Source: a virus. Taken from it: a stretch of 64,000 nt of DNA. The stretch spans positions 1 to 64,000 of IMG/VR virus record IMGVR_UViG_3300032246_001967; one strand, given 5' to 3'. Below the pieces are notes generated by a model that was given only the letters and a program-made list of their open reading frames with translations, did no database searches and was not told the DNA's origin. The position numbers and the translations under genes were made by a program. Positions 17,578 through 44,581 of this stretch are shown one piece after another; within the stretch, counting starts at the first letter, position 1, and the number at the start of each line of letters is the position of its first letter.

Positions 17578-17943
17578 ATGAAAAGACAAATACTTTCTGA
17601 AGAATTCCAGCGTATGCAAAAACTAGCTGGTATAATTACTGAGTCTGAAGATTCTTTTGGTCCTAATAGCATTTCTACATTTGCTAATGAACATTTTGAT
17701 GAAATTCAAAATATGTTTGGTAAACTTCGTGGTGGTAAATTTGAAGGTTTTACAAACAATAGAGGTATTGAAGTAGCATTTATTGGTACTGATGAAGATG
17801 ATGGGATGGATATATCTTTTGATCCTAAATTTGAAGAGATGTCAGACATATATAATGATATAGAACCAGTTGAAATAGCTGGTAAAACAGTTTATGTAAA
17901 TGATTATCTTAATCATAATTTAGATAATGAAGATGAAGATTAA
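17578..17943 (+). CDS. Acidic protein with scaffold-like RMQKLAGI leader; putative internal head protein
   Basis: MKRQILSEEFQRMQKLAGIITE versus scaffold C-terminus RWQKLAGIK. Confidence 0.6.
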   Translation: MKRQILSEEFQRMQKLAGIITESEDSFGPNSISTFANEHFDEIQNMFGKLRGGKFEGFTNNRGIEVAFIGTDEDDGMDISFDPKFEEMSDIYNDIEPVEIAGKTVYVNDYLNHNLDNEDED

Positions 17944-17966
17944 TAAATAAAAAATATTTTAAAATT

Positions 17967-17994
17967 AAGCTTGGTTCGCCAAGCTTTCTTTTTT
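17967..17994 (+). terminator. Rho-independent terminator overlapping a TTGG-N19-TATATT promoter
   Basis: AAGCTTGG-TTCG-CCAAGCTT plus T-run; TTGG at 17971, TATATT at 17994. Confidence 0.8.
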
Positions 17995-18022
17995 ATATTA
18001 CGGTTATGTTCAATATTTATGA

Positions 18023-18631
18023 TTGATGGATAAAAAAACTAATATATATTACTTGCATAATGGTGATAATATTCCTTTTTATATAGGAAAAACAGTTCAA
18101 AACCCATCAAAACGATTAAATAATCATAAAAAAGTTTTTGGAAATAATACATTATTAGAAGTTATAGATATAGTTGAAAATAATAATTGGTTATTTTGGG
18201 AAAAACATTATATTTCTTTATTTAAATCTTGGGGTTTTAATCTAGAAAATAAAAATGAAGGTGGAGGAGGATGTATAACTCATGAAGTATCAGAATCTGC
18301 TAGAGAAAAAATAAGTAAAACTCATAAAAATCTTAAAAAACCATTTACTGAGTCTCATAAAATAAACCATCAAAAGTCTTATGAGAACAGAAATGTAACT
18401 TGGGGAAATAAAATATCAGAAGGATTAAAAGGTAGAAAAATAACATGGGAACAAGGAAATGTAGGAAAACCATCTTCACCAATCAACCAATATGATTTAG
18501 AGGGAAATTTTATTAAAAAATGGGATAATATAAAAGATCCTTCTTTAATTTATAAATGTTATATAAGTGGTTGTCTTAAAGGAAGGCAAAAAACAGCCGG
18601 AGGTTATATTTGGAAATATGCAAATAAATGA
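18023..18631 (+). CDS. GIY-YIG homing endonuclease with NUMOD-type C-terminus
   Basis: IYYL...FYIGKT, R..NH, EKHYI, LENKNEGG; QYDLEGNFIKKW...TAGGYIWKY. Confidence 0.85.
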   Translation: MMDKKTNIYYLHNGDNIPFYIGKTVQNPSKRLNNHKKVFGNNTLLEVIDIVENNNWLFWEKHYISLFKSWGFNLENKNEGGGGCITHEVSESAREKISKTHKNLKKPFTESHKINHQKSYENRNVTWGNKISEGLKGRKITWEQGNVGKPSSPINQYDLEGNFIKKWDNIKDPSLIYKCYISGCLKGRQKTAGGYIWKYANK

Positions 18632-19550
18632 ATCATTAGTAGCATTAGTTAATTCAATTTTAGGAACAGGTAAATCTACTGCTAAAGGAAATAAATCATA
18701 TACCTGCCCAAAATGTAATCATCATAAACCTAAATTAGAAATTAATTTTGATATTACATCTCCCCATTATCAAAAATTTGCTTGTTGGGCTTGTGGTTTT
18801 AAAGGTAAAAAAATTATTCAATTATTTAAACAAGTTAAAGCATCACCAAATGCTCTTTTAGAATTAAGATCTATTGTTAAAACTGAAACTGCTGAAAAAA
18901 AAGAAATAACAACAGAAAAAGTTGAGTTACCAAAAGAATTTCAACCATTAATTAATATATCTAAATCAAATATTATAGGAAGACACGCTTTAGCATATTT
19001 AAAATCCAGAAATATTACTGAAGAAGATATTTTAAAATATAATATCGGTTATTGTGAATCAGGACCTTATAGAAATATGGTTGTTATTCCTTCATATGAT
19101 GCTGATGGTAGATTAAATTATTTTACAGGTCGTTCATTTGAAAAAGAAGCTAAAGTAAAATATAAAAACCCAACTGTATCACGTGATATTATACCATTTG
19201 AGTTGTTTATAAATTGGGATATACCGTTTATATTATGCGAAGGACCATTTGACGCCATTGCTATTAAAAGGAATGTTATCCCGTTACTAGGCAAAAATAT
19301 ACAAACAAAACTAATGAAGAAGATAGTAATGTCTTCTGTTGATAAAATATATATAGCCCTTGACCGGGATGCTCAAAAACAAGCTTTATCCTTCTGTGAG
19401 CAATTAATGAATGAAGGTAAAGAAGTATATTTAGTAGATATGCAAGATAAAGACCCAAGTGAAATGGGCTTTAAAAATTTTATTAATTCAATTTCAGAGA
19501 CTTACCCCTTAACACTCTCAGGCTTACTTGAGAAAAAATTATTTTTATGA
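18618..19550 (+). CDS. DNA primase (Zn finger plus TOPRIM); likely start ATG 18618
   Basis: CPKC...CWAC zinc finger, YFTGR, KYKNP, LCEGPFDAI, IALDRDA, KDPSE. Confidence 0.85.
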   Translation: MQINESLVALVNSILGTGKSTAKGNKSYTCPKCNHHKPKLEINFDITSPHYQKFACWACGFKGKKIIQLFKQVKASPNALLELRSIVKTETAEKKEITTEKVELPKEFQPLINISKSNIIGRHALAYLKSRNITEEDILKYNIGYCESGPYRNMVVIPSYDADGRLNYFTGRSFEKEAKVKYKNPTVSRDIIPFELFINWDIPFILCEGPFDAIAIKRNVIPLLGKNIQTKLMKKIVMSSVDKIYIALDRDAQKQALSFCEQLMNEGKEVYLVDMQDKDPSEMGFKNFINSISETYPLTLSGLLEKKLFL

Positions 19551-20320: not shown

Positions 20321-20341
20321 CTTATTTTTGTTATATTTATG
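20309..20341 (+). promoter_or_regulatory. Composite TTGG-N19-TATATT / TATATTTAT promoter
   Basis: TTGG at 20309, TATATTTATG at 20332-20341. Confidence 0.6.
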
Positions 20342-20354
20342 ACAAAATATTTCC

Positions 20355-21113
20355 ATGATTGGACTGGTCTCTTTATTAAAAGAAATACAAGGTAAACCTA
20401 AAGCTATTTTTATGGCAGGTCCAGCAGGATCAGGGAAATCATTTATTGCTTCTAAATTAATTCCTTCAAATTTTAATATTATTAATAGTGATGACACTTA
20501 TGAGGAATTACTTAAAGCAACTGGTTTAGGATTAAAACAAAAAGATTTTACTCCAGACCAATTATCTCAGGCCGCTAAATTACAAACTGTAGCTAGAAAA
20601 GAAACAGATAAAAAGTATCAGGAACTTACTAAAAATTTACAAAATGTAGTTATTGATGGTACAGGTGCTGCTACTAAACCTTTATTAAAGAAAAAAGAAG
20701 AGTTAGAATCATTAGGTTATGATACGTTTATGGTTATGGCTTACGTTCCTGTATTAGTTTCATTAGAACGTAATATGCAGCGAGAAAGAAGCTTAATGCC
20801 AGGTATTGTGCTTCGAACTTGGCGTGATGTAAATAAAAATATAGACACATATAAACAAGCTTTTGATGATAGTATCGTAATTGTGAATACAAGCGATAAT
20901 AAAGATTTAAATGTATTTTCAAAAGATAAATTACAAAAATATTTTGAACAATCCAAAGCAGTTGGTAAACCAAAAACACCTGAAGAACAACAAAAAGCAC
21001 AAGCAGAAAGAGACCAATTGATATCTGATATTGAAAAAATGTCGGTTAAGTTTCCTACTACTGATACATTAGAACAAGCAAAAACAAAAATAACTAACTT
21101 TATAAACAAATGA
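20355..21113 (+). CDS. P-loop kinase, zeta-toxin/AAA_33-like, with LLKE leader
   Basis: AGPAGSGKS, INSDD, VIDGTG, SLERNMQRER. Confidence 0.8.
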   Translation: MIGLVSLLKEIQGKPKAIFMAGPAGSGKSFIASKLIPSNFNIINSDDTYEELLKATGLGLKQKDFTPDQLSQAAKLQTVARKETDKKYQELTKNLQNVVIDGTGAATKPLLKKKEELESLGYDTFMVMAYVPVLVSLERNMQRERSLMPGIVLRTWRDVNKNIDTYKQAFDDSIVIVNTSDNKDLNVFSKDKLQKYFEQSKAVGKPKTPEEQQKAQAERDQLISDIEKMSVKFPTTDTLEQAKTKITNFINK

Positions 21114-21475
21114 AATTATTAGATTTATTAAACGAAATAGAAGAAGCAGAAAAAACTCATCTTGAACCAGTTGAAGAAGTTTACAAACCAATAGATGAAA
21201 TTGGTAAATTCTTTGTAGTTAAAAAACCTAAAAAAGGTATGACTAAAGAAGACCTTATGTATGAAGCAACTATCTTTGATAATATTATCCCTGAAGAAAC
21301 TCAAGGTGTATATAAACAAAAATCTGATGCTTCTAGAATAGCAACTGAAGCTTTTAAAGCGTATGAAGCTCAATTAGAAGAAATGGAATCAGCAATGAAT
21401 GATTTCCGTTCTGCTAAAAAAGATATTGAGGAAAAGAAAAAGGTTGCTAAAGAAAAAATAATGAAATTAAGATAA
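21110..21475 (+). CDS. Hypothetical protein with MKLLDLLNE leader
   Basis: Coupled ORF, K/E-rich. Confidence 0.6.
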   Translation: MKLLDLLNEIEEAEKTHLEPVEEVYKPIDEIGKFFVVKKPKKGMTKEDLMYEATIFDNIIPEETQGVYKQKSDASRIATEAFKAYEAQLEEMESAMNDFRSAKKDIEEKKKVAKEKIMKLR

Positions 21476-24072
21476 TGTCTGAAATAACAGAATCTTTATT
21501 AAAAGAACTGTTAGATGAGCCAATAACAGTAGCCATTTATGGTGGTGGTTTTAAACCTCCTACCAAAGGTCATTTTCTTGTAGTTGAAAAAGCATTACAA
21601 GAATTCCCTGAAATAGATGAATTAAAAATTTTTGTAGGTGGAGGAGTTAGAGATGGTATTACTCAAGATGAATCTATTAAAGTATGGGAAATTTATAAAC
21701 CCTACCTTTCAGATAAAATAGATATTGAAGCTTCTGTAGCCCCTGTTAAATCAGTTTTAGGATATGCTAAAGACCATCCTGAAGAAAAAGTTTATTGGAT
21801 TTTAGGCGCTCGTGAAGGTGATGAAGAAGATTTAAAAGATATTGAAAATAGAACTAAATCTTTATCTAAATACCCAAATATTGAAGTAAAAATTATCACT
21901 ACAGCTGGTGGTGTAAGTGGAACTAAAACCAGAGCCGCTATTAAATCAGGAAATAAAGAACAATTTTTCCATTTAATTCCAGACGTAAAAGAAAAAGAAG
22001 AAATCTGGAACATATTATCACCAGTAGTTAAAGAAGAATTAACTGAAGGTCGTTATGATTCATTAACTAGAACAGTTGTAAATGATATCTTAAACGATTG
22101 GAAATTACAATTTGATGGTGAAAATAGCGATTTAGAATTTGAAGAAGATTATGAAATGACAAATTCTAAAGGCGAACCTATTAATTTTGAACTTTATGCT
22201 GTTTTAAGAGTTAAAGAGACAAGTAATCATATTTACAAAGTAGATGGTGGTGCTGATCCTTTAAGAGATCCTGCTTATTTAGAAGTAAAATTTCAAGTAG
22301 ATCCTAGAGACTTACCTCAAAAATGGGAAGACATTTATATGGATTTAACTGATGTAGTTAGACATGAGATAGAACATATGACTCAACAGGGTACTAATGT
22401 TATTCCTTCTAAAAAAATGGAAGATGATGAGATACTAAGAAATCTTATTAATTTAAAATTATTACCTAAATCAGATTACTTCAGATTAGAACAAGAAATA
22501 GATGCTATGCTTCAAGGTATGTATTTGAAAGCTAAAAAATCTAAAACACCGTTTAAAGATGTAATCAATGATTATTTTGATAAAGTAAAATTATCAAAAA
22601 AAGATAGACAAGATATTTTATCTATTTGGAAAAATAGAGCTAAAGCTTTATCTTTACCTTTAAATGAAATTGGTGATGCAAGTGCTAAAGTATATCCTTT
22701 TACATCTAATAAATCACTTAAACAAATAATGGATAAGGCTATTGATTTTAAAAACCACGATCATATTTATCCATATTATTCTGATAATATTTTATATACA
22801 TTTGATACAGAAAAAGCCAGGTATCTTGTAGAAATATTAATCGACATGGAGATAATATCAAATACAAACTCAGCAAATAATCCTAACGAAAAATCAGAGC
22901 CATTATTTAATACAACATCCCAAGTTATTTTTACTACTGAAGGAAACCCAGGAGATGAAATTACTAATCTAAATGAACAGTACTCAGTTTTATCTACTAT
23001 TACTAAAATTATTTTAGAATTTGTTGAAGAATTTAATAAAAAAGGAGGAAATATAACCGCCGTTCAGATTGCTCCTAAAAGCGATAATGATAATTTATCT
23101 AAAATTGATTCAAAACGAGGAAAATTTTATACTGCTTATATTAAGAAGAATCTTTCAAAAGTTCCAGGATATAGTATTCGAGAAAAAACAAATTATGAGG
23201 GTCATGAATATATTGAAATCTATAAAACTAATAGTATAAATGAATTAGACAAGTCAAATCTCAAATCAATTAGTCAAAAAATTGATAGTTTACCTCAAGG
23301 TAAATTATTTGATGATGCTAAAAATATAGAAAGTATTTTTAATAAAAGTAAACATAGTTGGAACGAAACAATTGAATCTTTTGAAAAAAATAAAGATAAA
23401 GGTAAAGAACAATATGTTAATATAAACGATATTCATATTACTCAACCTAATATTCAGAGTAATAAGGTAAAAAATATGATTAAAAATATTGATAAATTAC
23501 CTGTTATTAATGTTGTTGAATTTCCTGATGGTGAAAAAGTGATTTATGATGGACACCATAGACTTATAGCTAATTGGGCTTTAGGGAATGAAAAAATCAA
23601 AGCAAACTTAGTTAAAATTGACAAATTAAAAGAAAATGATCCTTTTGGTATTAAGGCTTATGCTCGTGAATTAGTAAAAGAAACTTTTAAAAAAGATTGG
23701 AATCTTAAAGAAGGGATGTTATCTTTATCTAAGTATATGATTGACAATGGAATGAATATCAAACCATTGCCTAAAATAAAGGTTATAGATAACGACGCTG
23801 AAAATGCTTCTAATCTTTTGGGCAAAACAGCTTATTACAATCCTGCTGATAAGTCTATTACTTTATTCACTATGAATAGACACCCAAAAGATATTTTAAG
23901 ATCATTTGCCCACGAAATGGTTCATCATGAACAAAATTTAGATGGTCGATTAAATAATATAGCAACTCAAAATACAAACGAGGATGGTGATTTACCTGAA
24001 ATTGAAAGAGAGGCTTATGAAAAAGGAAATATGATGTTAAGAAATTGGGAGGATAATATAAAAAATGTATAA
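21475..24072 (+). CDS. Multidomain protein: HIGH-type nucleotidyltransferase, HExxH domain, unknown domain, ParB/Srx-like domain, second HExxH domain
   Basis: YGGGFKPPTKGH and SGTKTR; RHEIEH; IYDGHHRL; AHEMVH. Confidence 0.75.
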   Translation: MSEITESLLKELLDEPITVAIYGGGFKPPTKGHFLVVEKALQEFPEIDELKIFVGGGVRDGITQDESIKVWEIYKPYLSDKIDIEASVAPVKSVLGYAKDHPEEKVYWILGAREGDEEDLKDIENRTKSLSKYPNIEVKIITTAGGVSGTKTRAAIKSGNKEQFFHLIPDVKEKEEIWNILSPVVKEELTEGRYDSLTRTVVNDILNDWKLQFDGENSDLEFEEDYEMTNSKGEPINFELYAVLRVKETSNHIYKVDGGADPLRDPAYLEVKFQVDPRDLPQKWEDIYMDLTDVVRHEIEHMTQQGTNVIPSKKMEDDEILRNLINLKLLPKSDYFRLEQEIDAMLQGMYLKAKKSKTPFKDVINDYFDKVKLSKKDRQDILSIWKNRAKALSLPLNEIGDASAKVYPFTSNKSLKQIMDKAIDFKNHDHIYPYYSDNILYTFDTEKARYLVEILIDMEIISNTNSANNPNEKSEPLFNTTSQVIFTTEGNPGDEITNLNEQYSVLSTITKIILEFVEEFNKKGGNITAVQIAPKSDNDNLSKIDSKRGKFYTAYIKKNLSKVPGYSIREKTNYEGHEYIEIYKTNSINELDKSNLKSISQKIDSLPQGKLFDDAKNIESIFNKSKHSWNETIESFEKNKDKGKEQYVNINDIHITQPNIQSNKVKNMIKNIDKLPVINVVEFPDGEKVIYDGHHRLIANWALGNEKIKANLVKIDKLKENDPFGIKAYARELVKETFKKDWNLKEGMLSLSKYMIDNGMNIKPLPKIKVIDNDAENASNLLGKTAYYNPADKSITLFTMNRHPKDILRSFAHEMVHHEQNLDGRLNNIATQNTNEDGDLPEIEREAYEKGNMMLRNWEDNIKNV

Positions 24073-24607
24073 ATTTAAACTTACTAATACTTACAAACAA
24101 TTAAGAGAAGAAGAAACAACTACTCCGGAGCAAAAATATAAAATTTATTGCGATATGGATGGAGTATTATGTGATTTTGATGCTCGTTTTAAAAGTATTA
24201 ACCCAGAAAAATTATCACCATCTCAATATACAAACAAATATGGTGTTGATAAATTTTGGACAACAATTGACGCTGAAGGAGTTAAATTTTGGGTAGGAAT
24301 TAAATGGATGTCTGACGGTAAAGAATTATGGGATTATATTAAACAATATAACCCAACATTATTATCCGCGCCTTCAAGAGCCCCTTCATCACGTTTAGGA
24401 AAAAGATTATGGGTTAAAAACAACCTTCCAGGAACTCCATTAATTTTAGCATCAGCTGAAAAAAAACAGAATTATGCTAAAGGAAGCCATATACTTATAG
24501 ATGACCGACCAGACAATGTTAATCAATGGAAAAACAAAGGTGGGATTGGTATTTTACATATAAACACAGCAGACACAATTAAACAATTACAAAATTTAGG
24601 ATTATAA
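24065..24607 (+). CDS. HAD-family 5'(3')-deoxyribonucleotidase-like phosphatase
   Basis: CDMDGVLCDF, LLSAP, K, LIDDRPDN. Confidence 0.85.
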   Translation: MYKFKLTNTYKQLREEETTTPEQKYKIYCDMDGVLCDFDARFKSINPEKLSPSQYTNKYGVDKFWTTIDAEGVKFWVGIKWMSDGKELWDYIKQYNPTLLSAPSRAPSSRLGKRLWVKNNLPGTPLILASAEKKQNYAKGSHILIDDRPDNVNQWKNKGGIGILHINTADTIKQLQNLGL

Positions 24608-24609
24608 TT

Positions 24610-25605
24610 ATGGCATTTAAAAGAATAGTAGCTAACTCAGAAGAGGATTTAAAAACAATCATGAATGATATCATGAATTGGTTTAAGGAAACTAAAGATT
24701 ACAAAGTTGATTTTAGTAAAGAAAAACGTAAATTCTTAGACGACAATAAAAATATTGTTGAAAAAGATATTGATGTTATTAAAGTAGTAGATGGTGCTAA
24801 TGGTAAAGAAACCTCTATTAAATTTGTTCCTATGAAAGAAAAAGGAGAAATGAAAGTAGAAATAGGTGGAGAAGGTGAAGCGGCTATTGCTGGTAAAATT
24901 TCTAACCAAATGAAAAGTAAAGGAAAATTAAAAAGCTATAGTAAAGATAAAAAAGTTAAATTAGGTGAAGAAGACACTAAAAAACCTGAAATGACTGATG
25001 ATGAATTAATGAAAAAAATTAAATCATCTTTATCATTCCAAGTTTCAGGCGGTAAAAAAGGTAAACCTGGTTTAAAAGAATCTTTAGATAAAAGAATTGC
25101 TACTGTATTTTTTAAATATAAAGGTAAATCATTTCCTATGGATTATAAAACAGGTTCTATGTTTGAAAGATTCATTAATGATTTAACAAAATCAGGTGCT
25201 TTTAATAGTGAAGATGAAGTTTCTGATTTTATGGCGAGTGAAGAATTTGATTCTTATGCTAATAAATTTAATGTAGAAATTGATTGGGCAGAATATGATC
25301 CAACACCATTAGAATTAGCCCCTAAAGAACCAACAAATCCACAAGATTCAATTCCTGGTAGAGCACCTAAAGATTTTGTTAGTGCTGATATGCCTCATAG
25401 AGTATCTGATTTAATGGAAAAATTAAATAAAACAGGTAAATTAACTAAATCAGAATTAAAAGAAATCTTATTATACGAAAATATGGGTAGTAAAGTATCA
25501 AATTGGGATGATTTATATGATGAATGGTATTCTTTAGGTGATAAAAAATCATCATTTATTTCTTGGTTAAAAAATCATTTTAATCCTCCTACATATAAAA
25601 GATAA
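24610..25605 (+). CDS. Modular K/E-rich hypothetical protein
   Basis: Segments bounded by LGE, LKE, LME and a KSELKEILLYE repeat. Confidence 0.55.
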   Translation: MAFKRIVANSEEDLKTIMNDIMNWFKETKDYKVDFSKEKRKFLDDNKNIVEKDIDVIKVVDGANGKETSIKFVPMKEKGEMKVEIGGEGEAAIAGKISNQMKSKGKLKSYSKDKKVKLGEEDTKKPEMTDDELMKKIKSSLSFQVSGGKKGKPGLKESLDKRIATVFFKYKGKSFPMDYKTGSMFERFINDLTKSGAFNSEDEVSDFMASEEFDSYANKFNVEIDWAEYDPTPLELAPKEPTNPQDSIPGRAPKDFVSADMPHRVSDLMEKLNKTGKLTKSELKEILLYENMGSKVSNWDDLYDEWYSLGDKKSSFISWLKNHFNPPTYKR

Positions 25606-26186
25606 TGACTAAGGAAGAACGTAAAGAATATAATAAAAATTATTATTTAAACAATAAAGATTTAATAAAAAAGTCTAGAGATAATAATCAAGAAACTATA
25701 AAAAATTATAATAAAGATTATAGAGAAAAAAATAAAAATAAATTAAATCAATATAATAAACAATATAGAGAAAATAATTTAGAGTATTATAAAAATTACA
25801 ATAAACAATATAGAGAAAATAATCTAGATTATTTTAAACAATGGATAAATAATAATAGAGAATCAGTTAATTTAAAAACTAATCAAAGAAATAAATTAAA
25901 AAGAAAAAATAATCCTGAATATAAAATACAAGAAAGTACTAGAAGTAATATTTATAGAATTATAAAAAATAAAACTAAAAGTACTAACGAATATTTAGGT
26001 TGTAATTTTGAAGATTATAAAATATATTTAGAAAAAATGTTTACACCTGAAATGAATTGGAATAATTATGGAATTTATTGGGAAATAGATCATATTATTC
26101 CTTTAAGTAAAGAAGGAAGTTTTCATTATACTAACACCCGTCCTCTTACAATTACAGAAAATAGAAGTAAATATAATAAGTTATGA
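25605..26186 (+). CDS. HNH endonuclease (homing-type) with N-terminal YNKxYRENN repeats
   Basis: LGC...MNWNNYG..WEIDHIIPLS...HYTN..PL...EN..K. Confidence 0.85.
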   Translation: MTKEERKEYNKNYYLNNKDLIKKSRDNNQETIKNYNKDYREKNKNKLNQYNKQYRENNLEYYKNYNKQYRENNLDYFKQWINNNRESVNLKTNQRNKLKRKNNPEYKIQESTRSNIYRIIKNKTKSTNEYLGCNFEDYKIYLEKMFTPEMNWNNYGIYWEIDHIIPLSKEGSFHYTNTRPLTITENRSKYNKL

Positions 26187-28141: not shown

Positions 28142-28705
28142 ATGAAAAAATTTGACTTAAGAAAGATGATAGCTGAAAATAAGGCTACATTTTTTGCTTC
28201 AATAAACGAAGGTGAAGCTGCTTATGAATACGAAAAAGGTAAAGAAGCAGGTGAAGCCATTGAAAAGAAAAAAATGAAAAAATCAGAATTAAAAGCTAAA
28301 ATCAAAGAAATGATTGTAGCTGAAATGGACGGTCCTGCTGTGGTTGATTCAGAATATGATTTCTTAAAAGAAATTGAAAATATGTTAGAAGCTGATGAAG
28401 AAGCTGATGCTGATATTGAAGCAGCAGATGATACCACAGGTGAAGACACTACAGCTGGTGAAGAAGTAGATACTACAGTAGATGTTTCTACAGATGAAGT
28501 TGATCCTAATATTAAAGCTGTACAAGATGCTTTAACTCAAGCACAAGCAGCAGCACAACAATTAGGTGATCCTAAATTAATGGACCAAATTGGTAACACA
28601 ATCACTTTCTTTACTCGCTCACACGTAGTTGAAAAACCAGGTGCCGCAGTAGCAGAAAATATTAATGAGTCTATGTTCCCAATGTTAAATAAAATTTTAA
28701 AATAA
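28142..28705 (+). CDS. Acidic putative head core/internal protein
   Basis: MKKFDLRKMIAE leader, internal KKSELKAKIKE, INE sites; late promoter at 28122. Confidence 0.55.
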   Translation: MKKFDLRKMIAENKATFFASINEGEAAYEYEKGKEAGEAIEKKKMKKSELKAKIKEMIVAEMDGPAVVDSEYDFLKEIENMLEADEEADADIEAADDTTGEDTTAGEEVDTTVDVSTDEVDPNIKAVQDALTQAQAAAQQLGDPKLMDQIGNTITFFTRSHVVEKPGAAVAENINESMFPMLNKILK

Positions 28706-28711: not shown

Positions 28712-28882
28712 ATGAACACAACAGAAATTTTTGAAAAAATTGAGATGTTATTTGAAGAATTTAAAGCAGAACATGCTAAAACTACAAAAGCAGCTCACGG
28801 TCGTGCTAGAAAAACTTTAGGTGAAATCAAGAAATTGGTTACCGAGTACAGAAAAGCATCTATCGAGGAAGATAAAAAATAA
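28712..28882 (+). CDS. Histone H1-like (Hc1-family) small DNA-binding protein, 56 aa
   Basis: Not in the ORF track. MNTTEIFEKIEMLFEEFKAEHAKTTKAAHGRARKTLGEIKKLVTEYRKASIEEDKK*; KAAxxRARK...K...EYRK matches the Hc1 N-terminal signature. Confidence 0.75.
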   Translation: MNTTEIFEKIEMLFEEFKAEHAKTTKAAHGRARKTLGEIKKLVTEYRKASIEEDKK

Positions 28883-32719: not shown

Positions 32720-33346
32720 ATGGCTTATGTTTATCTTATAACTAATAAAATAAATGGAAGAAAATATGTTGGTTCTTCTAGAAAATCTCAAATAGATCCT
32801 AATTATTATGGTAGTGGTAAAGCAATAAAAGATGCTTTAAAAAAATACGGAAAAGAAAATTTTCAAAGAGATATACTATGGGAAGGTGAGGGAAATGCTC
32901 GTGATATGGAAACTTACTTTTTAGAGAAAAAAGATGCTGCTAATAATCCTTTATATTATAATATGACTAATGATGCTAGGGGGAATAATCTTCATAAAGA
33001 AGAAACTAAAAAAACAGTTAGTGAAAAATTAAAAGGTAGTAAACTTTCTAAAGAAACTTGTGAGAAAATCTCAAAAGCAAAAATAGGATCAACAACTTCT
33101 AAAAAAGGTAAATCTGATGGTCCTAAACCTAAAGTATCTGAAGCACATAAAGGTAGAATAAGTCCTAATAAAGGAAAAAGTAAACAAGTAGCTTTATATA
33201 AGACATCAGGTGAATATATTAAAACATACTCTAATTACAATGAATTAGCAATAGATTTAAACATCAATCCAGAAACCGTAAGATGTCAATTAGTAGGTAA
33301 AGCTAAAACTATATGTAACAAACAATATAAAGCACAATATGTATAA
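32720..33346 (+). CDS. GIY-YIG homing endonuclease (Seg-like)
   Basis: YVYLITNKINGRKYVGS, YYGSG, KKYGKENF, YYN, NUMOD3-like repeats. Confidence 0.85.
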   Translation: MAYVYLITNKINGRKYVGSSRKSQIDPNYYGSGKAIKDALKKYGKENFQRDILWEGEGNARDMETYFLEKKDAANNPLYYNMTNDARGNNLHKEETKKTVSEKLKGSKLSKETCEKISKAKIGSTTSKKGKSDGPKPKVSEAHKGRISPNKGKSKQVALYKTSGEYIKTYSNYNELAIDLNINPETVRCQLVGKAKTICNKQYKAQYV

Positions 33347-33355: not shown

Positions 33356-33745
33356 ATGGATAAACTTACAGATATATTAAGAGAAATTCTTGAAGAAGAA
33401 AAAAAGAAAGAAGATCGTTGTAAACGTATTGCTGATCGTAGATATGATAAACCATCTGCTTATAAATCTGGTGCTATTGTTAGATGCAGAAAAGGAGATA
33501 TTTGGAAAGATATTAAAGAAGAAGAATTAAATGAAGATGAAACTCTTCATAAATGGTTTAAACGTTCTGGTCCAAAAGGTAAAGAAACAGGTTGGGTAGA
33601 TTGTAATGCTCCTGATGGAAAAGGAGGTTATAAAGCTTGTGGTAGAAAAGAAGGTGAAAAACGTTCTAAATACCCTGCTTGTAGACCAACTCCTTCTCAA
33701 TGTAAATCAAAAGGTAAAGGTAAAAATTGGGGTAAAACAAAATGA
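33356..33745 (+). CDS. Basic Cys-rich two-module hypothetical protein
   Basis: LREILEE leader; PSAYKSG..VRCRK and LHKWF...WVDC...CGR...YPACRP modules split by IKEEELNE. Confidence 0.6.
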   Translation: MDKLTDILREILEEEKKKEDRCKRIADRRYDKPSAYKSGAIVRCRKGDIWKDIKEEELNEDETLHKWFKRSGPKGKETGWVDCNAPDGKGGYKACGRKEGEKRSKYPACRPTPSQCKSKGKGKNWGKTK

Positions 33746-33984
33746 TTAAATTACAGAATATAATCACTGAAAATTATGGTGGTAAGGGTGAAATGGTTTT
33801 ACCCCCAAATCATAAAGCAGGTTTAAAAGTACCTAAAGGAGGTTCTTGTTGTGCTAATTGTAAATGGTGGGATAAAGAAAATCAAGTTTGCACTAGTACT
33901 TATTATGCAGAATGGGCAGGAACTAATAAAATTCCTTATGCCGCAGATGAATATTGTACTAACTGGTGGGAACCTATAAAATGA
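33742..33984 (+). CDS. Small Cys-rich metal-binding protein with MIKLQNIITE leader
   Basis: CANC...C...C..W spacing. Confidence 0.55.
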   Translation: MIKLQNIITENYGGKGEMVLPPNHKAGLKVPKGGSCCANCKWWDKENQVCTSTYYAEWAGTNKIPYAADEYCTNWWEPIK

Positions 33985-34250
33985 GACCCTATAAAGATTT
34001 ACAAGTAACAAAAGAATATATCATCAGAGAATTTGATGAAAACATTGACCCAATAGAGTTAATGTGGCATCGTGATAATGAAGACAGAATAGTTGAAATC
34101 ATAGAACCAGGAAATGGTTGGAAATTTCAATTCGATAATGAGTTACCTTGGGATCTTGAGCCTAAAATGTCAATATGTATATTACGACATGAATGGCATC
34201 GTGTTATTAAAGGAACAGGAAATTTAAAATTAAAAATATATAAATCGTGA
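33981..34250 (+). CDS. Cupin-like protein (likely start ATG 33981)
   Basis: WHRD..E and WHRVIKG metal motifs. Confidence 0.65.
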   Translation: MRPYKDLQVTKEYIIREFDENIDPIELMWHRDNEDRIVEIIEPGNGWKFQFDNELPWDLEPKMSICILRHEWHRVIKGTGNLKLKIYKS

Positions 34251-34885
34251 ATAATTTTGACTTAAAAGCATATTTAGCATCCCAAAAATTATTTGAAGCA
34301 GAACAACCTTCAGATGAAATTGAATTAGATCAATTAGATAAAGAAATCAGTTCAGCATTTGCTTCTGGCTTATCAGCTTTACAAGGGCAAACAACAGATA
34401 TTAAAGAACAAATAGAAGAAGCAGATATTCAATTAAATGAAGCTGTTGGTTCATTAATTATATCTTTATTATTATCAGCTCCTAAATTATTAGAAATAAT
34501 TGGAGGAATGGTTAAAAAAGTAGCTACTAAATTTGCTAAAGAAAAAGGAAAAGTAACATCAGGTGATGCTTTTATTCATGCTGGTCATTATTTAGAAGGA
34601 AAATATTTAAGTCTTCTTAAAAAGATTATTAAAGTTACAGGTATTGCTAGAAAAGCAAACATTAAAACAGATGCTGAATTAGAAACAGCAGCTAAAGTAT
34701 TACTTTATTCTGTTTTAGGAATGGCGGCTGTATCTGCTGGTGTTGCTTCCGCGGAATCAATTGGAGGATTTATAGCTGGTAAAGGAGTAGGAACAGCTAT
34801 TTATGGTGTTGCTAAAGGTGGATTAGCAGGTTTAAAAAGTACAGAAATAATTCAAGGTATTAAAGCGTTAGACGCTAAAATATAA
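34247..34885 (+). CDS. Protein with FDLK leader and hydrophobic Gly/Ala-rich helices
   Basis: After LNE: VGSLIISLLLSAP; C-terminal LLYSVLGMAAVSAG...GGLAGLK. Confidence 0.6.
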   Translation: MNNFDLKAYLASQKLFEAEQPSDEIELDQLDKEISSAFASGLSALQGQTTDIKEQIEEADIQLNEAVGSLIISLLLSAPKLLEIIGGMVKKVATKFAKEKGKVTSGDAFIHAGHYLEGKYLSLLKKIIKVTGIARKANIKTDAELETAAKVLLYSVLGMAAVSAGVASAESIGGFIAGKGVGTAIYGVAKGGLAGLKSTEIIQGIKALDAKI

Positions 34886-34966: not shown

Positions 34967-34969
34967 AAT

Positions 34970-34998: not shown

Positions 34999-35010
34999 AA
35001 AACGTTAAAT

Positions 35011-36363: not shown

Positions 36364-36365
36364 GT

Positions 36366-36394: not shown

Positions 36395-36400
36395 AATATC

Positions 36401-36643: not shown

Positions 36644-36645
36644 TT

Positions 36646-37176: not shown

Positions 37177-37187
37177 TATTTATAATC

Positions 37188-37679
37188 ATGAAAAAATCTG
37201 ATTTAGAAAAAGAAATTAAAGAATATATCGTTGAAATTTTATCTGAAGAAACTATTCAAGAAGAAGATCCTCAAGTTAAAAAAATAAATGATAAAATTCA
37301 AAAAGATCCTGAATTCTTAAAGAAAACAAAAGAAGCAATGGCTAAAGCTGAAAAAGGTGATACTACAGATTTGGCTATGCTTATGGGTGGATTTGGTAAA
37401 ATGTTTGAATCAGAAGATGAAGATAGAGAACCTACTAAAGCTGAATTAGAAAAAGAAAAAGTAAAAGGTGCTCCATCTAAATTTAAAGTACCAAATGATC
37501 AATTTGAAGACTTTAAAACAAAATTAAAAACTTTAGTTAAAAAAATTAAAGACATGGAAAAAGGAGCAGAACGTGATAAGAAAATGGCTGCCCTTAAACA
37601 ATTTATCAAGAAACCTGAATTAGTTAAAGCGTTTAAAGAAAGAGACGTTGAAATTAATACTGGTGGTTTAGTAGGATAA
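37188..37679 (+). CDS. K/E-rich protein with MKKSDLEKEIKE leader
   Basis: Late promoter at 37175; LSE, IQE, MFE sites. Confidence 0.55.
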   Translation: MKKSDLEKEIKEYIVEILSEETIQEEDPQVKKINDKIQKDPEFLKKTKEAMAKAEKGDTTDLAMLMGGFGKMFESEDEDREPTKAELEKEKVKGAPSKFKVPNDQFEDFKTKLKTLVKKIKDMEKGAERDKKMAALKQFIKKPELVKAFKERDVEINTGGLVG

Positions 37680-37681
37680 TT

Positions 37682-38257: not shown

Positions 38258-38263
38258 AAATTT

Positions 38264-39841
38264 ATGAGTGAAAATGTAAACTTAAAAGATGTTATAAGAC
38301 AAGAGTACATAAAATGCTTGCAGGACCCTGCTCATTTTATGAAAAAATACTGTAACATCCAGCATCCTCAAAGAGGTAGAGTAATATTTAATCTGTATCC
38401 TTTCCAAGATAAAGTATTAAACCTTTGGAAGGATCATCCTTATTCTATTGTATTAAAATCTAGACAGTTAGGTATTTCTACATTAGCAGCAGGTTATTCT
38501 TTATGGTTAATGTTATTCCATAAAGATAAAAACGTACTTTGTATCGCGACTAAACAAGAAACTGCTCGTAACATGGTTACAAAAGTTAAGTTTATGTTCG
38601 ATAATTTACCTACTTGGCTTAAAATAGGAGCTGAGGAAAATAATAAATTATCATTACGATTAAGTAATGGTTCACAAATTAAAGCCACTTCAGCAAGTAG
38701 TGATGCGGGTCGATCAGAAGCCGTATCTTTACTAATTGTCGATGAGGCAGCGTTTATTGAACAAATTGGTGAGATTTGGGCTTCAGCACAACAAACATTA
38801 GCAACGGGTGGTGGAGCAATTGTGTTATCTACTCCTTATGGTACAGGTAACTGGTTTCATCAAACGTGGGTTAGAGCTGAATCAGGTGAAAATGATTTTT
38901 TACCTATTAAATTACCTTGGTATGTACATCCAGAACGAAATGAAGATTGGAGAAAACGTCAAGATGAATTATTAGGTGATCCTAGATTAGCAGCTCAAGA
39001 ATGTGATTGTGACTTTAATACATCAGGTGATGTAGTATTTTATCCTGAATGGACAGATTTTATTAGAGAAACAACACTTCAAGAACCAATAGAAAGAAGA
39101 GGAGCCGACCAAAATTTATGGGTATGGGAACCTGCAGACTATACAAGAGATTATATAGTAGTAGCAGACGTAGCTAGAGGTGATGGTAAGGATTTCTCAA
39201 CTTTTCATGTAATTGATATTGCAACTAATACACAAGTTGCAGAATATAAAGGGCAAATGTCGCCTAAAGAGTTTGGATACTTTTTAGTTGCTATTGCTAC
39301 TGAATATAATATGGCTCTATTAGTAATAGAAAATGCTTCTATTGGTTGGGCGGCTATTGAATCTGTGTTAGAAAGAGGATATCAGAACACCTATTATTCA
39401 CCTAAGAGTGATAATCTAACAGTTGATTCGTATTTTAATAAGTACGAAAATAGCGATAACGTAACGCCTGGTTTTACTATGTCATTAAGAACACGTCCTT
39501 TAGTAATAAATAAGTTTAGAGAATATGTCGGAGATCGCTCTGTGACTATTAAATCTAAACGTTTATTAGAAGAAATGAAAGTATTCGTTTGGAAAAATGG
39601 ACGTCCAGAAGCACAATCTGGTTATAATGATGATTTAGTTATGCCGTTTGGTATTGCTATGTATTTAAGAGACACATCATTAAAATTTAGACAACAAGCA
39701 CACGATTTATCAAGAGCCACTTTAAGTAATTTTTCAAAAGGAAATACTAGTTTTATAGGAGCCTATAATGCTAATAATGTTCCTAATCCTTATTCCATTG
39801 AAACAAACAGCGGAGTAGAGGACATTAAGTGGTTATTGTAA
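38264..39841 (+). CDS. terL: Terminase large subunit (gp17-like)
   Basis: LYPFQ, KSRQLGIS Walker A, LIVDEAAF Walker B, STPYG, ADVARG.DFS, NDDLVM. Confidence 0.95.
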   Translation: MSENVNLKDVIRQEYIKCLQDPAHFMKKYCNIQHPQRGRVIFNLYPFQDKVLNLWKDHPYSIVLKSRQLGISTLAAGYSLWLMLFHKDKNVLCIATKQETARNMVTKVKFMFDNLPTWLKIGAEENNKLSLRLSNGSQIKATSASSDAGRSEAVSLLIVDEAAFIEQIGEIWASAQQTLATGGGAIVLSTPYGTGNWFHQTWVRAESGENDFLPIKLPWYVHPERNEDWRKRQDELLGDPRLAAQECDCDFNTSGDVVFYPEWTDFIRETTLQEPIERRGADQNLWVWEPADYTRDYIVVADVARGDGKDFSTFHVIDIATNTQVAEYKGQMSPKEFGYFLVAIATEYNMALLVIENASIGWAAIESVLERGYQNTYYSPKSDNLTVDSYFNKYENSDNVTPGFTMSLRTRPLVINKFREYVGDRSVTIKSKRLLEEMKVFVWKNGRPEAQSGYNDDLVMPFGIAMYLRDTSLKFRQQAHDLSRATLSNFSKGNTSFIGAYNANNVPNPYSIETNSGVEDIKWLL

Positions 39842-39859
39842 TATTTATAATATATTTAC

Positions 39860-41737: not shown

Positions 41738-41770
41738 GAATCTTTATATATTTATAACAAAATCTTGATA

Positions 41771-42628: not shown

Positions 42629-43448
42629 TTTTAAATATAAAATAAAAGAAATTCAAGTAGGTGATGTCGAAATCGACAGAGGGACAAAATATACTGTAAA
42701 ATCAGTTGATCCTGAATCTGGAGCTATTGAATGGAGTGTAGAAAAAGTTGCTGATTATGAATCTTCTTTCGAAGAATTAAATAAAGCAAAAAACCTATTA
42801 GATAAACTTATTACAGCTCCAGGAGCAAAAGATGATATTAAAATTAGACAAATAGCTTCTCAAGTTAGAGACACTGTAAATAATTATAGAACTCATCTAA
42901 GAAAAAATTATCCTGAAGAATATAATAAAATCAAATCTTTATCCGAAGAAAGTACTACTGGTGGTGGAGTGGGACAAGCAAATTATACTTCAGGTACTGA
43001 AGGTGAAAATATAGCTACTAAATATGCTTTTAGTAAGAAAAAATTAAAAGAAGGTCCTGGTGCTTCAGTAGGTCCAGGTCCTAAAGCAGGTCCTGAAGGT
43101 GTTAAAGATAATACTTATGTAAAAAATTTTAAATATACTTTAGTTGATAAAAAAGCTTTAAATAAAGCTGCTAAAGGTATTGATGTTAAACCTTTATGGG
43201 AAGCTGAGTTTGATGTTGATGAATTAAATTTACAAAATCCTCAATTAAAAGATTGGATCCAAGAAAGAGTTCAATCTTTTGATGATATTGAAAGACAATT
43301 AAATGTTTTGGTAGGATTATTACAACAAGCAAAACAAGACACTATTCGTAAATATAGCCAAAATCCTAATTTTGCTGTTATTTATGGTACCGATATGGCT
43401 AAAGAATATTTAAACGACTTAATAGAATTATTTAAAAAACAACAATAA
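42621..43448 (+). CDS. Head-region modular protein
   Basis: IKE, LSE, LKE, LWE segment boundaries. Confidence 0.55.
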   Translation: MANFKYKIKEIQVGDVEIDRGTKYTVKSVDPESGAIEWSVEKVADYESSFEELNKAKNLLDKLITAPGAKDDIKIRQIASQVRDTVNNYRTHLRKNYPEEYNKIKSLSEESTTGGGVGQANYTSGTEGENIATKYAFSKKKLKEGPGASVGPGPKAGPEGVKDNTYVKNFKYTLVDKKALNKAAKGIDVKPLWEAEFDVDELNLQNPQLKDWIQERVQSFDDIERQLNVLVGLLQQAKQDTIRKYSQNPNFAVIYGTDMAKEYLNDLIELFKKQQ

Positions 43449-43450
43449 AC

Positions 43451-43684
43451 ATGGCAAATATACCAGTAAACGCAACCGGCATAGTATCAACAACAACAAT
43501 AACAGGTAGTTTTGGAGGATTTTCTGTAGTATCAGGATCAGCTGTATTCACAGGTTTAAAAGATGCTAATGGAAATATATTAGCAACTGTAGCTGCACCT
43601 TTAGTAATTAACTCTGGAGATACAATTCCTATTTATGTAACTAGCGCTTCTTTATCTTCTGGAGCAGTATTATTTTATTATTAA
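43451..43684 (+). CDS. Small beta-rich structural protein (possible decoration protein)
   Basis: Hydrophobic S/T/G-rich 77 aa. Confidence 0.5.
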   Translation: MANIPVNATGIVSTTTITGSFGGFSVVSGSAVFTGLKDANGNILATVAAPLVINSGDTIPIYVTSASLSSGAVLFYY

Positions 43685-43696
43685 TATTTATAACAA

Positions 43697-44581
43697 ATGG
43701 AAAAAACATTACAACAACAATATATTCTTATTAAAGAAGGCAAAGGAAACAAAGATGACTTTTTAAAAAGTGCTCGTCGTGTATTTCCTGAGTTTATTAC
43801 TCCATTAACTGACTATAAAACTGCTGTTAATATTCTAAAAAGCAAAAGTATTTTATCTGAATCAGTAAAACCTGTTGAAAAGAAAAACTGGTTTGAAATT
43901 TTTAATAAAAATATAAATGAAGCTGTAGGTGTTAAAAACACTAAAACTTATGGTGACCAAAATGAGTTTGATAAAATTGATTCTGAAGTACAAAAAACTT
44001 TAGATAAAGCTAATTTTAATAATAAAGACTCTAAAAATATTGATAACCTTTATGGTCAATCTTTCTTAATGGGTTATTATACTGAAATGAAAGATCCTAA
44101 AAACGCTGGAAAAACAGTAGATGAGTTAAAAGAAATTGTAGCTAAAAATATGGCTAAAGATATTAACTATTATGCTACAAATGCTTCATTTGGTGTTAAA
44201 GGTATTGGTTATGAAAAATCAAAAGAACAAAAAGACCCTAAAGGTAAATGGAAAGCTAGTGGATATGGTGATTTAAGTGAAGCTAAACGTCCTAATATTT
44301 CTTCAGAAATTAAAGAGATTGAAAAATCAAACGAAACATTAGCATTAGAAGCTAAAATAAAAGCAATTGATGAAGCTATTGAAAAAAGACAATCTAAATT
44401 ATCTATTGCTGAATCAGAAGAATTAGCTGAAATGATTGATCCTAAAATGGTTAAAACTCTTCAAAAAGAAATTAAAGAGTTAGAAAAATATAAAGCTAAA
44501 GCTGCTAAATTATATGAAAAAATAACTGGTAGTAAAAAACAAGAAGTTATAGACGAAGATAACGATTTAACTCAATATTAA
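43697..44581 (+). CDS. Putative prohead core protein
   Basis: Immediately upstream of the protease; IKE, LSE, INE sites; coiled coil. Confidence 0.5.
   Translation: MEKTLQQQYILIKEGKGNKDDFLKSARRVFPEFITPLTDYKTAVNILKSKSILSESVKPVEKKNWFEIFNKNINEAVGVKNTKTYGDQNEFDKIDSEVQKTLDKANFNNKDSKNIDNLYGQSFLMGYYTEMKDPKNAGKTVDELKEIVAKNMAKDINYYATNASFGVKGIGYEKSKEQKDPKGKWKASGYGDLSEAKRPNISSEIKEIEKSNETLALEAKIKAIDEAIEKRQSKLSIAESEELAEMIDPKMVKTLQKEIKELEKYKAKAAKLYEKITGSKKQEVIDEDNDLTQY

Follow-up and report, generated by a model that had tools for sequence, protein, structure and literature searches.

The stretch of DNA analysed here (the window, 64,000 nucleotides) covers positions 1–64,000 of IMGVR_UViG_3300032246_001967, a 128,324-bp IMG/VR viral contig that is rated 78% complete, and our subject is a set of short leader peptides, or tags, that recur on otherwise unrelated proteins of this phage and its relatives. 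The source is a T4-like-headed phage of aquatic Flavobacteria, with a G+C content of ~29% and every called gene on the + strand; no tRNA was found in the 64-kb window. Family profile matches identify a T4-type head module comprising a gp20 portal, a gp21/S77 protease and a gp23 capsid protein (Table 1; genes are referred to by the position of their first nucleotide). The closest cultured phage is Flavobacterium phage vB_FspM_immuto (hereafter immuto), a phage of Flavobacterium sp. LMO8, the capsid protein of which is 53.5% identical, followed by Microcystis phage Mel-JY01 (48%); immuto has the same gene order and shares the block of small genes that separates the tail-fibre genes from the terminase. 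Terminase relatives in IMG/VR number at least 600, and 80 of these loci were fetched and combined with immuto and the source genome (173 proteins) into a set of 1,252 proteins.

The prohead protease matches the structure of T4 gp21 (PDB 5jbl, E = 3.6e-17) and is 35% identical to that protein. Its GELDHP and GVSSRG motifs align with GELNHP and GVSSRG of T4, and the catalytic His and Ser are kept; the crystallised, inactive T4 gp21 (5jbl) has Ala at that His and at one Ser. A weak match to the S80 family was also obtained (PF20034, E = 0.0019). Both ends of the protease carry candidate sites of its own kind, MKQVLIE↓T at the start (compare LLIE↓T in T4) and ..SLLTE↓I at the end, where the arrow marks the predicted cut. 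The capsid protein has a predicted maturation site, AKQLV(T/M)E↓, at Glu60, and L57, V58 and E60 are invariant in 17 of 17 orthologues. An earlier reading of the window, made from its letters alone (the sequence-only reading), had pointed to such sites in the protease (VLIE and LHE), the scaffold (LLKE, MNE and IME) and the major capsid protein (LLE), and all are present as quoted. Directly upstream of the protease, the conserved head-module protein 43697 begins with a peptide that has the form of a T4 targeting sequence, and its orthologues in related loci begin MKTLQ(E/Q)QYNLIKEGKG.

The same reading had proposed that about 20 proteins share one short leader ending in [LIMV]-x-E, and the 13 N termini it listed all read as quoted. 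We grouped proteins into 418 families by BLAST of residues 31 onward and compared the N-terminal 12-mers of the 338 representatives of sufficient length. Between proteins with unrelated bodies, 127 of 56,953 pairs reached a BLOSUM62 score of at least 34, compared with 1, 0 and 0 pairs for internal segments and 0, 1 and 0 for composition-preserving shuffles (56,953 pairs each), and the similarity thus goes beyond a K/E/L-rich composition. The leaders are real, far beyond chance, and they form at least four classes rather than one family. Clustering of the 12-mers at a score of at least 30 gave class 1 (MxNFDLKKYLxENKL, on 14 body families), class 2 (..EFxRMQKLAGIITE↓S, on 11), class 3 (MKKSELKxxIKE, on 9) and class 4 (MIKLxxILxE, in two groups of 3 body families). 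Signal and lipoprotein peptides form a separate cluster in the same clustering, and the method therefore recovers a known type of targeting signal, which serves as a positive control.

The motifs are almost solely terminal. The class 1 motif is N-terminal in 16 of 18 occurrences, class 3 in 34 of 37 and class 4 in 19 of 22, against a positional expectation of 4.8%; the class 2 motif lies at a protein end in 37 of 38 (13 N-terminal and 24 C-terminal). Among the eight internal occurrences of classes 1, 3 and 4, seven have a Met immediately or two residues before the leader, which suggests tandem leaders, fusions or wrongly called starts. A DNA-level explanation, in which a conserved 5′ gene end would serve recombination or regulation, is ruled out by abundant synonymous variation: codon pairs in the class 2 core were identical in 302 cases, synonymous in 277 and non-synonymous in 246, and the other classes also vary synonymously. 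It is therefore the peptide, and not the DNA, that is conserved.

The leaders finish at residues 9–22 with hydrophobic residues at P7, P4 and P3 and Glu at P1. The corresponding pattern (hydrophobic-x-x-hydrophobic-hydrophobic-x-Glu, ending within the first 25 residues, with internal positions as background) is 3.7-fold enriched in the 128-kb source genome (23 of 3,287 N-terminal against 70 of 37,337 internal positions), a count that is partly circular because the pattern was derived from the examples of the sequence-only reading itself. The relatives and T4 are independent data, and enrichment is 3.1-fold in immuto (25 of 4,275 against 84 of 44,839) and 4.7-fold in the 80 IMG/VR loci (162 of 16,226 against 429 of 202,194), the last count taking in the protease N terminus (MKQVLIE, 22 loci) and terminase N termini (MSQDLKQIIRE and variants, at least 25 loci). 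The plain [LIMV]-x-E that had been proposed is only 1.66-fold enriched at the N termini of the source genome. After the hydrophobic pattern at residues 8–16, P1 is Glu in 76 and Asp in 9 of 364 cases (789 proteins, non-redundant at the N terminus), compared with 277 and 252 of 2,915 cases in the internal background. For the T4 internal protein IPIII, residues 4 and 7 are described as contributing to targeting and residues 8 and 10 to processing, with Asp at position 10 blocking processing and not targeting (PMC9026906). These four residues correspond to P7, P4, P3 and P1, and the bias of Glu over Asp therefore fits.

In a T4 control, which took in 120 of the 169 kb of the GenBank record (211 open reading frames), the pattern coincides with known gp21 sites in ipII and ipIII (MKTYQEFIAE↓A), gp24 (MAKINELLRE↓S), gp23 (..FGSFLTE↓A, residue 65) and gp68. 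T4 gp61.1 (54 amino acids (aa), T4 18966–19130) begins MKTFKEFIKE↓D, near the targeting sequence carried by internal proteins, and the T4 head protein gp2 begins MAIFQIINE↓S.

These counts bear on the possibility that the leaders have no shared function, and are either ordinary amphipathic N-terminal helices of a K/E/L/I-rich proteome of 29% G+C or conserved 5′ gene ends that serve recombination or translation. The slight enrichment of the plain motif would suit this explanation, as would the behaviour of the seven-residue pattern in T4 (2.7-fold enriched, mostly in non-substrates), the absence of support beyond the pattern for 21475, 24065, 28882 and 30317, and the N terminus of the relatives' terminase, which looks alike. 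Set against it are the 127 pairs that shuffles and internal segments reduce to 0–1, the terminal position of the motifs, a Glu:Asp ratio of 76:9 as opposed to 277:252 internally, the synonymous variation, and a model of the scaffold tail that finds a leader and has no match in a shuffled proteome (see below). We consider an absence of shared function highly improbable overall; it is already refuted for classes 1 and 2 and stands for single class-3-like cases.

One of the leader classes has a counterpart in the head module itself. The protein encoded between the protease and the capsid protein is very acidic, and is our candidate for the scaffold, or prohead core; its C-terminal tail (nucleotides 46419–46463) reads ..KKPIME↓ANDQVARWQKLAGIK. 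The extreme C terminus of this protein, ..RWQKLAGIK, matches the core of class 2, ..RMQKLAGIITE. The scaffold of immuto ends ..EQVSRWQKLAGIIK and that of Mel-JY01 ..KKILNE↓SNNVVERMKKLAGIVK, and all 22 full-length scaffolds, those of the window, of immuto and of 20 loci (21 of them aligned), have the motif R(W/M/F)(Q/K)xLAG(I/L) no more than four residues from the end; two of these tails read RMQKLAGIK and RMQQLAGLRK. The match holds in both directions: a class 2 leader model built without the window finds the scaffold at aa 351–363 (E = 0.0021), and a model of 21 non-window scaffold tails finds two of the 173 genome proteins, the scaffold (6e-11) and 17578 at aa 10–20 (2.1e-6). Across the 1,252 proteins, the tail model has ten non-scaffold matches (nine N-terminal, one C-terminal and none elsewhere), and none in a shuffled proteome. 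As judged from these alignments and models, the class 2 tag and the scaffold tail share a core. Two non-scaffold proteins, L036_6770 and L050_843 (735 aa), carry the class 2 motif at the C terminus and another leader class at the N terminus, and there is a single hint of co-variation between tag and tail variants, from locus L068, which has LAGL in both, although contigs holding both are too few to support a claim.

The N terminus of the scaffold was rejected as a source of reused tags: a model of 18 non-window scaffold N termini had no match at E < 0.3 in other proteins. T4 gp22 lacks such a C-terminal tail. A complex prediction of the capsid protein with the first 45 residues of 17578 returned no answer (score 0.00), and it weighs neither way.

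Tag and body meet at a candidate protease site. Each of the 13 N-terminal class 2 tags has an [LIMV]xE within 6 aa downstream (background 0.12), and each of the 24 C-terminal tags, which mostly belong to orthologous scaffolds, has one 4–18 aa upstream (background 0.27). The last 60 aa of the scaffold contain three invariant hydrophobic-x-E sites: LV(F/Y)E↓T first, then (V/I/M)NE↓S, and finally PI(M/L/V/I/F)E↓, which lies 13 aa ahead of the tail motif; the MNE and IME of the sequence-only reading are among them. Information content in class 2 leaders is 2.5–4.3 bits at each position as far as the Glu and ~1 bit beginning three residues past it.

A word-based search recovered 12 metagenome proteins with a class 2 leader nearly identical to that of 17578 and with unrelated bodies. 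At E ≤ 0.001, a class 2 profile search of 1.84 billion representatives gave at least 1,452 matches, each representing a 50%-identity cluster, and 36 of them reached 1e-10; many of these matches are fragments from short contigs, and full-length families are therefore fewer than 1,452. Among the best 150 of the 1,452, the motif is N-terminal 147 times, C-terminal three times and internal twice (both after a Met-containing leader start), and four proteins have a variant form not recognised by the motif pattern. In the same 150, the N-terminal tags are followed by an [LIMV]xE within 7 aa in 143 cases out of 147; next to the Glu stands S (59), N (55), G (17), E (5), T (3), D (2) or A (2), and the median protein length is 117. 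In 50,697 cultured-phage records, tblastn found the class 2 leader only in the four records of immuto.

Within the source genome, class models trained solely on sequences from elsewhere support eight carriers at E < 0.01 among the 173 proteins (5628, 17578, 21110, 28142, 33742, 34247, 37188 and 83964), all through N-terminal matches; the last lies outside the window and belongs to class 1 (E = 1.3e-6). There are two non-N-terminal model matches, a class 3 leader inside 28142 and the scaffold C terminus. Conservation among orthologues adds the leaders of 20355, 32034 and 33356, which had been named as examples, whereas 21475, 24065 and 28882, named alongside them, match the pattern only, and 30317 has no Glu at the site, nor do its orthologues. 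We arrive at about 13 carriers, ~8 supported by class models and ~5 with family-level support, fewer than the earlier figure of about 20. Small orphan proteins, and not enzymes, have the best support.

Table 1 Leader-bearing proteins, head-module genes and promoter-like words in the window (↓, predicted cut)
Position	Strand	Feature	Leader or site	Supporting match
5628–5999	+	123-aa orphan	Class 3, MKPSEFKTLIKE↓A	Class 3 model, aa 1–14, E = 5.9e-5
17578–17943	+	121-aa acidic orphan	Class 2, aa 1–22, MKRQILSEEFQRMQKLAGIITE↓S	Class 2 model, E = 1e-19
20355–21113	+	P-loop kinase, zeta-toxin/polynucleotide-kinase fold	Class-4-like, MIGLVSLLKE↓I	PF06414, 2.7e-11
21110–21475	+	121-aa orphan	Class 4, MKLLDLLNE↓I	Class 4 model, aa 2–12, E = 0.0015
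21475–24072	+	865-aa protein, N-terminal nucleotidyltransferase motif, two HExxH	..SLLKELLDE↓P, pattern only	
24065–24607	+	NT5C-type 5′-nucleotidase	15-aa N-terminal extension ending QLRE↓E (weak case)	PF06941, 6.1e-5
28142–28705	+	187-aa acidic orphan (isoelectric point (pI) 4.25)	Tandem: class 1, aa 1–14, MKKFDLRKMIAE↓N; class 3, aa 45–59, MKKSELKAKIKE↓M	Class 1 model, E = 0.0053; class 3 model, E = 7.1e-5
28882–30324	+	480-aa protein	MTKKDLQKVLKE↓F, pattern match only	
32034–32687	+	217-aa basic protein with Cys-rich stretch	MDLKQLVKE↓V; APILNE↓N at residue 30	
33356–33745	+	DUF5872 protein	MDKLTDILRE↓I	PF19197, 3.1e-7; class 4 model, E = 0.032
33742–33984	+	80-aa Cys-rich protein	Class 4, MIKLQNIITE↓N	Class 4 model, aa 1–12, E = 1.3e-6
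34247–34885	+	212-aa protein	Class 1, MNNFDLKAYLASQKLFE↓A	Class 1 model, aa 1–19, E = 4.4e-6
37188–37679	+	163-aa charged orphan	Class 3, MKKSDLEKEIKE↓YIVEILSE↓E	Class 3 model, aa 1–16, E = 5.1e-7
38264–39841	+	Large terminase		PF03237
39860–41737	+	gp20-type portal		PF07230, 2.2e-69
43697–44581	+	Conserved head-module protein upstream of protease	MEKTLQQQYILIKE↓G	
44583–45188	+	Prohead protease, gp21/S77 family		PF03420, 1.5e-30
45393–46466	+	Putative scaffold (prohead core), acidic		
46495–48174	+	Major capsid protein, gp23 family		PF07068, 6.8e-75
3170, 5615, 14299, 17555, 28123, 32022, 32704, 37176, 39841, 41748, 43684, 48254, 50634, 54644, 55308, 60893, 61547, 63297		Word ATATTTATA		

The mature part of 17578 has a pI of 4.05, and its homology with immuto gp083 is confined to aa 1–24, which are 83% identical. 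The second leader of 28142 starts with its own Met. 5628 lies in the baseplate module, directly upstream of a gp25-like gene (family match), and relatives keep 37188 in the same place, upstream of their terminase gene. The C-terminal half of 34247 is Gly/Ala-rich and hydrophobic, and a search of the ESM Atlas with this protein returned only viral hypothetical clusters. In the 32034 family (phrog_7595, function unknown), P26, L28, N29 and E30 are invariant in 11 of 11 orthologues, of which seven have the leader and four have none; the site APILNE↓N closely resembles KAPMNE↓SL of the scaffold, and the AF2 model of the family is poor (mean pLDDT 60.2). Orthologues of 32034 mostly have a cysteine cluster of the C-x-C-G-C type in the variable region before the ILNE site. 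All four small orthologues of 33356 keep a Glu-ending leader, and DUF5872 also occurs as the C-terminal part of larger proteins that bear other leaders. Comparison of 20 proteins of the region with PHROGs gave only two function-unknown families and a weak head-protein match for 43451.

The orthologue of 28882 in locus L011 (L011_1686) begins MNNNQLKTVIRE. The genes 28882–30324 and 30317–30811 are parts of a single 841-aa protein in immuto (gp079, residues 294–388 and 704–813); the counterpart of gp079 is thus split into two genes here, each piece with an N-terminal helix of its own. A seven-protein cluster around 30814 was left out of the carrier count, its conserved N-terminal domain (..FFKKYSYKFPKGYPDMNN..) on diverged bodies having no leader with a terminal Glu. 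In 30814–32022 and its relatives, this is a 40-residue N-terminal module containing FFKKYSYKFPKGYPDMNN, the C-terminal parts are not related by BLAST and a Glu site is absent. The large terminase of most relatives begins MSQDLKQIIRE, which is class-3-like, and the terminase in the window has Gln in place of that Glu.

Taken together, at the level of sequence the tags are common to unrelated proteins, terminal, conserved as peptides and closed by an [LIMV]-x-E at the junction with the body. That they are a modular targeting signal is, in our judgement, very probable, and the prohead is their likely destination; cleavage at the tag–body junction is probable. We hypothesize that the leaders are modular propeptides that target proteins to the prohead and are removed there by the prohead protease, a combination that we also regard as probable. 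The sequence-only reading had already suggested capsid-targeting leaders of the T4 style with prohead-protease sites, and this idea gains support from the gp21/S77 protease, the residues at the positions of the T4 determinants, the match to the scaffold tail and the junctional [LIMV]xE. A tag would draw its carrier into the assembling prohead core alongside the scaffold, the gp21-type protease would cut after the Glu of the [LIMV]-x-E between tag and body, and the cut would free the body inside the head. Class 2 carriers presumably share the binding site of the scaffold, because the class 2 tag copies the C-terminal tail of that protein. By analogy with other phages and herpesviruses, this site may be the inner face or the N-terminal arm of the capsid protein; cargo would then compete with the scaffold for one site, and the same protease would release both. 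That the mature bodies are injected effectors is a more tentative proposal, which could as easily fail as hold.

The identity of the class 2 tag with the scaffold's own tail can also be read in another way, in which the tags do bring proteins to the prohead core and the carriers are accessory core or assembly proteins, comparable to T4 gp67 and gp68, that are broken down and lost along with the scaffold, rather than an injected arsenal. Like the scaffold, many carriers are acidic, short and of low complexity, several contain further [LIMV]xE within the body, and the T4 core is described as being cut down to small peptides that mostly exit the head (PMC9546572). Core parts would be expected to be conserved, however, whereas the bodies span at least 1,452 clusters, an extreme diversity, and turn over between close relatives, as those of T-even internal proteins do, and some carriers are folded (DUF5872, the Cys-rich domain and the kinase). 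We think it unlikely that the carriers are accessory core proteins.

A further alternative keeps the targeting signal and changes the partner: the tags could be a docking site or degron that delivers proteins to a phage or host protease for destruction at a set time, or a handle for a chaperonin or for oligomerisation that the scaffold has as well. A protease-type site does flank every tag, and the genome appears to encode GroES and GroEL. Yet the sole conserved carrier of the motif is the scaffold, at its extreme C terminus, and gp21-type proteases are described as acting inside proheads (PMC9546572), which makes a partner elsewhere improbable.

Several observations weigh against prohead-targeting propeptides. 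Prohead binding, cleavage, persistence in the mature virion and passage into the host along with the DNA are inferred, and our literature searches turned up no virion proteome, N-terminal mapping or packaging experiment for this phage or its relatives. Class 1 is conserved for three to four residues beyond the Glu (ENKL), which a bare cleavage site would not require. The Glu60 site of the capsid protein does not fall in the alignment column of the T4 Glu65 site. The scaffold is named by position and composition only, and showed no similarity to any family, to PDB entries or, by BLAST, to T4 gp22. By itself the pattern has little specificity: in T4 it flags 20 of 211 open reading frames, 5 of which are known substrates. 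The four class models find nothing in the 211 open reading frames of the 120 kb of T4 at E < 0.01, and the likeness to the T4 targeting sequence is therefore one of form, not of homology. Class-3-like N termini also occur where cargo is unexpected, in the relatives' terminase and in 5628 within the baseplate module; for the terminase, either the pattern is unspecific or a related contact is made there.

The sequence-only reading had gone further and described an arsenal of packaged enzymes, the catalytic domains of which start right after the Glu. The domains in fact start 6–10 residues later. For the kinase, Foldseek gave 1gvn and 4gp6 as top matches. Its homologues number 2,999 (E ≤ 1e-5), and among the best 120 of them 118 start MI.L..LLKE, followed by a variable linker; M1, I2, L4, L7, L8, K9 and E10 are invariant in 23 sequences. 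The AF2 model of this protein has a mean pLDDT of 90.8 and values below 50 for residues 1–10, which suggests a conserved peptide outside the predicted fold. The kinase homologues of cultured T4-like pelagimyophages align only from residue 16 onward and have other short leaders, MIPFILKE↓G in HTVC008M and MKTFAELQE↓G, near the T4 form, in Melnitz. The N-terminal peptide of the kinase thus differs among phage lineages, and the domain is conserved. The 865-aa protein 21475 matches TIGR00125 (7.6e-5, aa 19–54) and has HExxH at residues 297 and 813; among eight proteins compared with NCBIfam, only weak nucleotidyltransferase matches were obtained, for 21475. Its cytidylyltransferase-like counterpart in Mel-JY01 begins MGKLINILLSE, and HTVC008M gp130 begins MKTLKELLRK. 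In 24065, the 5′-nucleotidase domain starts at aa 27.

Conservation of the kinase leader and the leaders on the Mel-JY01 and pelagimyophage counterparts favour enzymes as cargo. Other results tell against it. The match of the class 4 model to the kinase lacks significance (E = 0.77). The extension of the 5′-nucleotidase is not conserved, that of the immuto orthologue (gp087) differing and ending LLLE↓E, and the Melnitz homologue seems to have none. The kinase operon and the DNA polymerase gene are preceded by the word TTTGTTATATT, not by the motif of the structural genes. Kinase, nucleotidyltransferase and 5′-nucleotidase genes also adjoin in HTVC008M (gp129–gp130) and Melnitz (_118–_119), and because the cluster is kept in pelagimyophages, an ordinary metabolic role is possible. 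We view the kinase, the nucleotidyltransferase and the 5′-nucleotidase as doubtful cargo, and as the weakest part of the proposal.

Several known systems resemble this one. The internal proteins of T4 are described as having propeptides of 10–19 residues with affinity for the core (PMC9026906, section 2.6), and those of T-even phages as anti-defence cargo with diverse, fast-turning bodies (PMC3012670, PMC9026906). The present system resembles that of IPI, IPII, IPIII, Alt and gp21 in its protease family and head module, in a short propeptide at the N terminus whose P7, P4 and P3 are hydrophobic and whose P1 is Glu, and in a conserved leader on unrelated, rapidly replaced bodies. It differs in that the leaders, known from sequence alone, are not homologous to the T4 sequence and form at least four classes instead of one, that the carrier families would number hundreds to thousands instead of a handful, and that tags also occur C-terminally or in tandem, with one class copying the scaffold tail. 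What is new, as far as sequence comparison goes, is the match of one leader class to the scaffold C terminus and the enlargement of the T4 targeting principle to several classes and a very large pool of carriers.

The scaffold tail itself has parallels in P22 and in herpesviruses. In both, the scaffold C terminus contacts the capsid protein, and in herpesviruses the scaffold and protease precursors share a C-terminal tail that is freed by the maturation cut. Here too, as with P22 gp8 and the herpesvirus scaffold, the peptide is at the extreme C terminus of the scaffold, with a PI(M/L)E↓ site 13 residues before it, and the same peptide on other proteins would be expected to load them. Unlike in those systems, its reuse would be natural, widespread and mostly at the N terminus of the cargo, and capsid binding by the tail is presumed by analogy; P22, moreover, has no maturation protease. 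Fusions to the P22 scaffold serve as a cargo-loading system (PMC9962691).

Other phages and shells share some features. The giant phages phiKZ, 201phi2-1 and SPN3US have a protease with a different cleavage motif. In these phages, many head proteins are reported to be processed by a related, gp21-like protease and ejected into the host (PMC5694885, PMC7411985, PMC10052503). Their propeptides are long, and are not described there as a few reusable short tags; the genome considered here, of 128+ kb, is not that of a giant phage. Encapsulin cargo peptides are likewise short terminal peptides that bring unrelated cargo to the inside of an HK97-fold shell (PMC8229669). The encapsulin peptide is retained, in contrast to the predicted fate of the tags, and the encapsulin shell is non-viral and has neither scaffold nor protease; the shell in the window is a gp23-family phage capsid protein among portal, terminase and tail genes, and is thus not an encapsulin. 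The Dar anti-restriction proteins of phage P1 are described as entering the head during morphogenesis and being delivered with the DNA (PMC12810830). P1 has a different type of head. To our knowledge, the Dar proteins share no short tag with a Glu site. We found no description of the present leader motifs in the literature searched, which included few subscription journals.

Head-borne proteins are the first phage products that a host meets; among those of T4 are an anti-restriction protein and an RNA polymerase-modifying enzyme. Except in a few model phages, head cargo can be found only by virion proteomics. It is conceivable, although we would not yet count on it, that a very large and mostly uncultured clade of aquatic T4-like-headed phages, the relatives of immuto and Mel-JY01, possesses general address labels for the capsid interior, and that genes acquiring a label become packaged and probably injected cargo. 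The labels would be a handful of terminal tags of 10–25 residues, one of them borrowed from the capsid-binding tail of the scaffold, each joined to its body by a prohead-protease site. If the tags are encapsidation signals, sequence would suffice to predict cargo in a clade that numbers hundreds of IMG/VR contigs, and the injected proteome of thousands of uncultured phages could be read in the same way. This would give access to a pool of rapidly evolving proteins that probably serve anti-defence and takeover and that possibly include enzymes, and the tags would offer a natural, ready-made means of putting proteins inside capsids. The identity between tag and scaffold tail would also link the internal proteins of phages to the scaffold tails of P22 and herpesviruses and to the loading peptides of encapsulins.

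Structural genes and several carriers have a promoter-like word ahead of them. (A)ATATTTATA(A) occurs 41 times in the genome, and 29 of these occurrences end within 40 nucleotides upstream of a called start. It lies 4–27 nucleotides ahead of the start codons of such genes, and of two genes for GIY-YIG endonucleases. Those that it precedes include the portal, 41765, 43697, 48289, 50651, 54657, 55332, 60906, the sheath (PF04984) and the tube gene, and, among leader genes, 5628, 17578, 28142, 32034 and 37188. The distance from the end of the word to the gene is 5 nucleotides for 5628 and 43697, 15 for 17578, 11 for 28142 and 4 for 32034 and 37188. ATATTTATA is probably the late promoter of the clade. 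The second word, TTTGTTATATT, was noted at window positions 20328 and 36385 and at contig positions 78231, 85747, 95038, 98649, 123085 and 124876, before the kinase operon, the DNA polymerase and other non-structural genes, and may be an early or middle promoter.

Three further groups of genes were noted. GroES/GroEL-like genes lie at contig positions 98954–100853, as judged from N-terminal sequences and the annotation of immuto. A late-type operon includes, between leader-bearing genes, a gene (28712–28882) whose 56-aa product belongs to the chlamydial histone-H1-like Hc1 family (PF07432, 1.2e-11); this protein has a homologue in immuto and no leader, and may be a DNA-condensing head protein. 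Free-standing homing-endonuclease-like genes (GIY-YIG, HNH and SegE-type) occur at window positions 18023–18631, 25605–26186 and 32720–33346 and at contig positions 104142–104873, two of them directly behind the late-type word.

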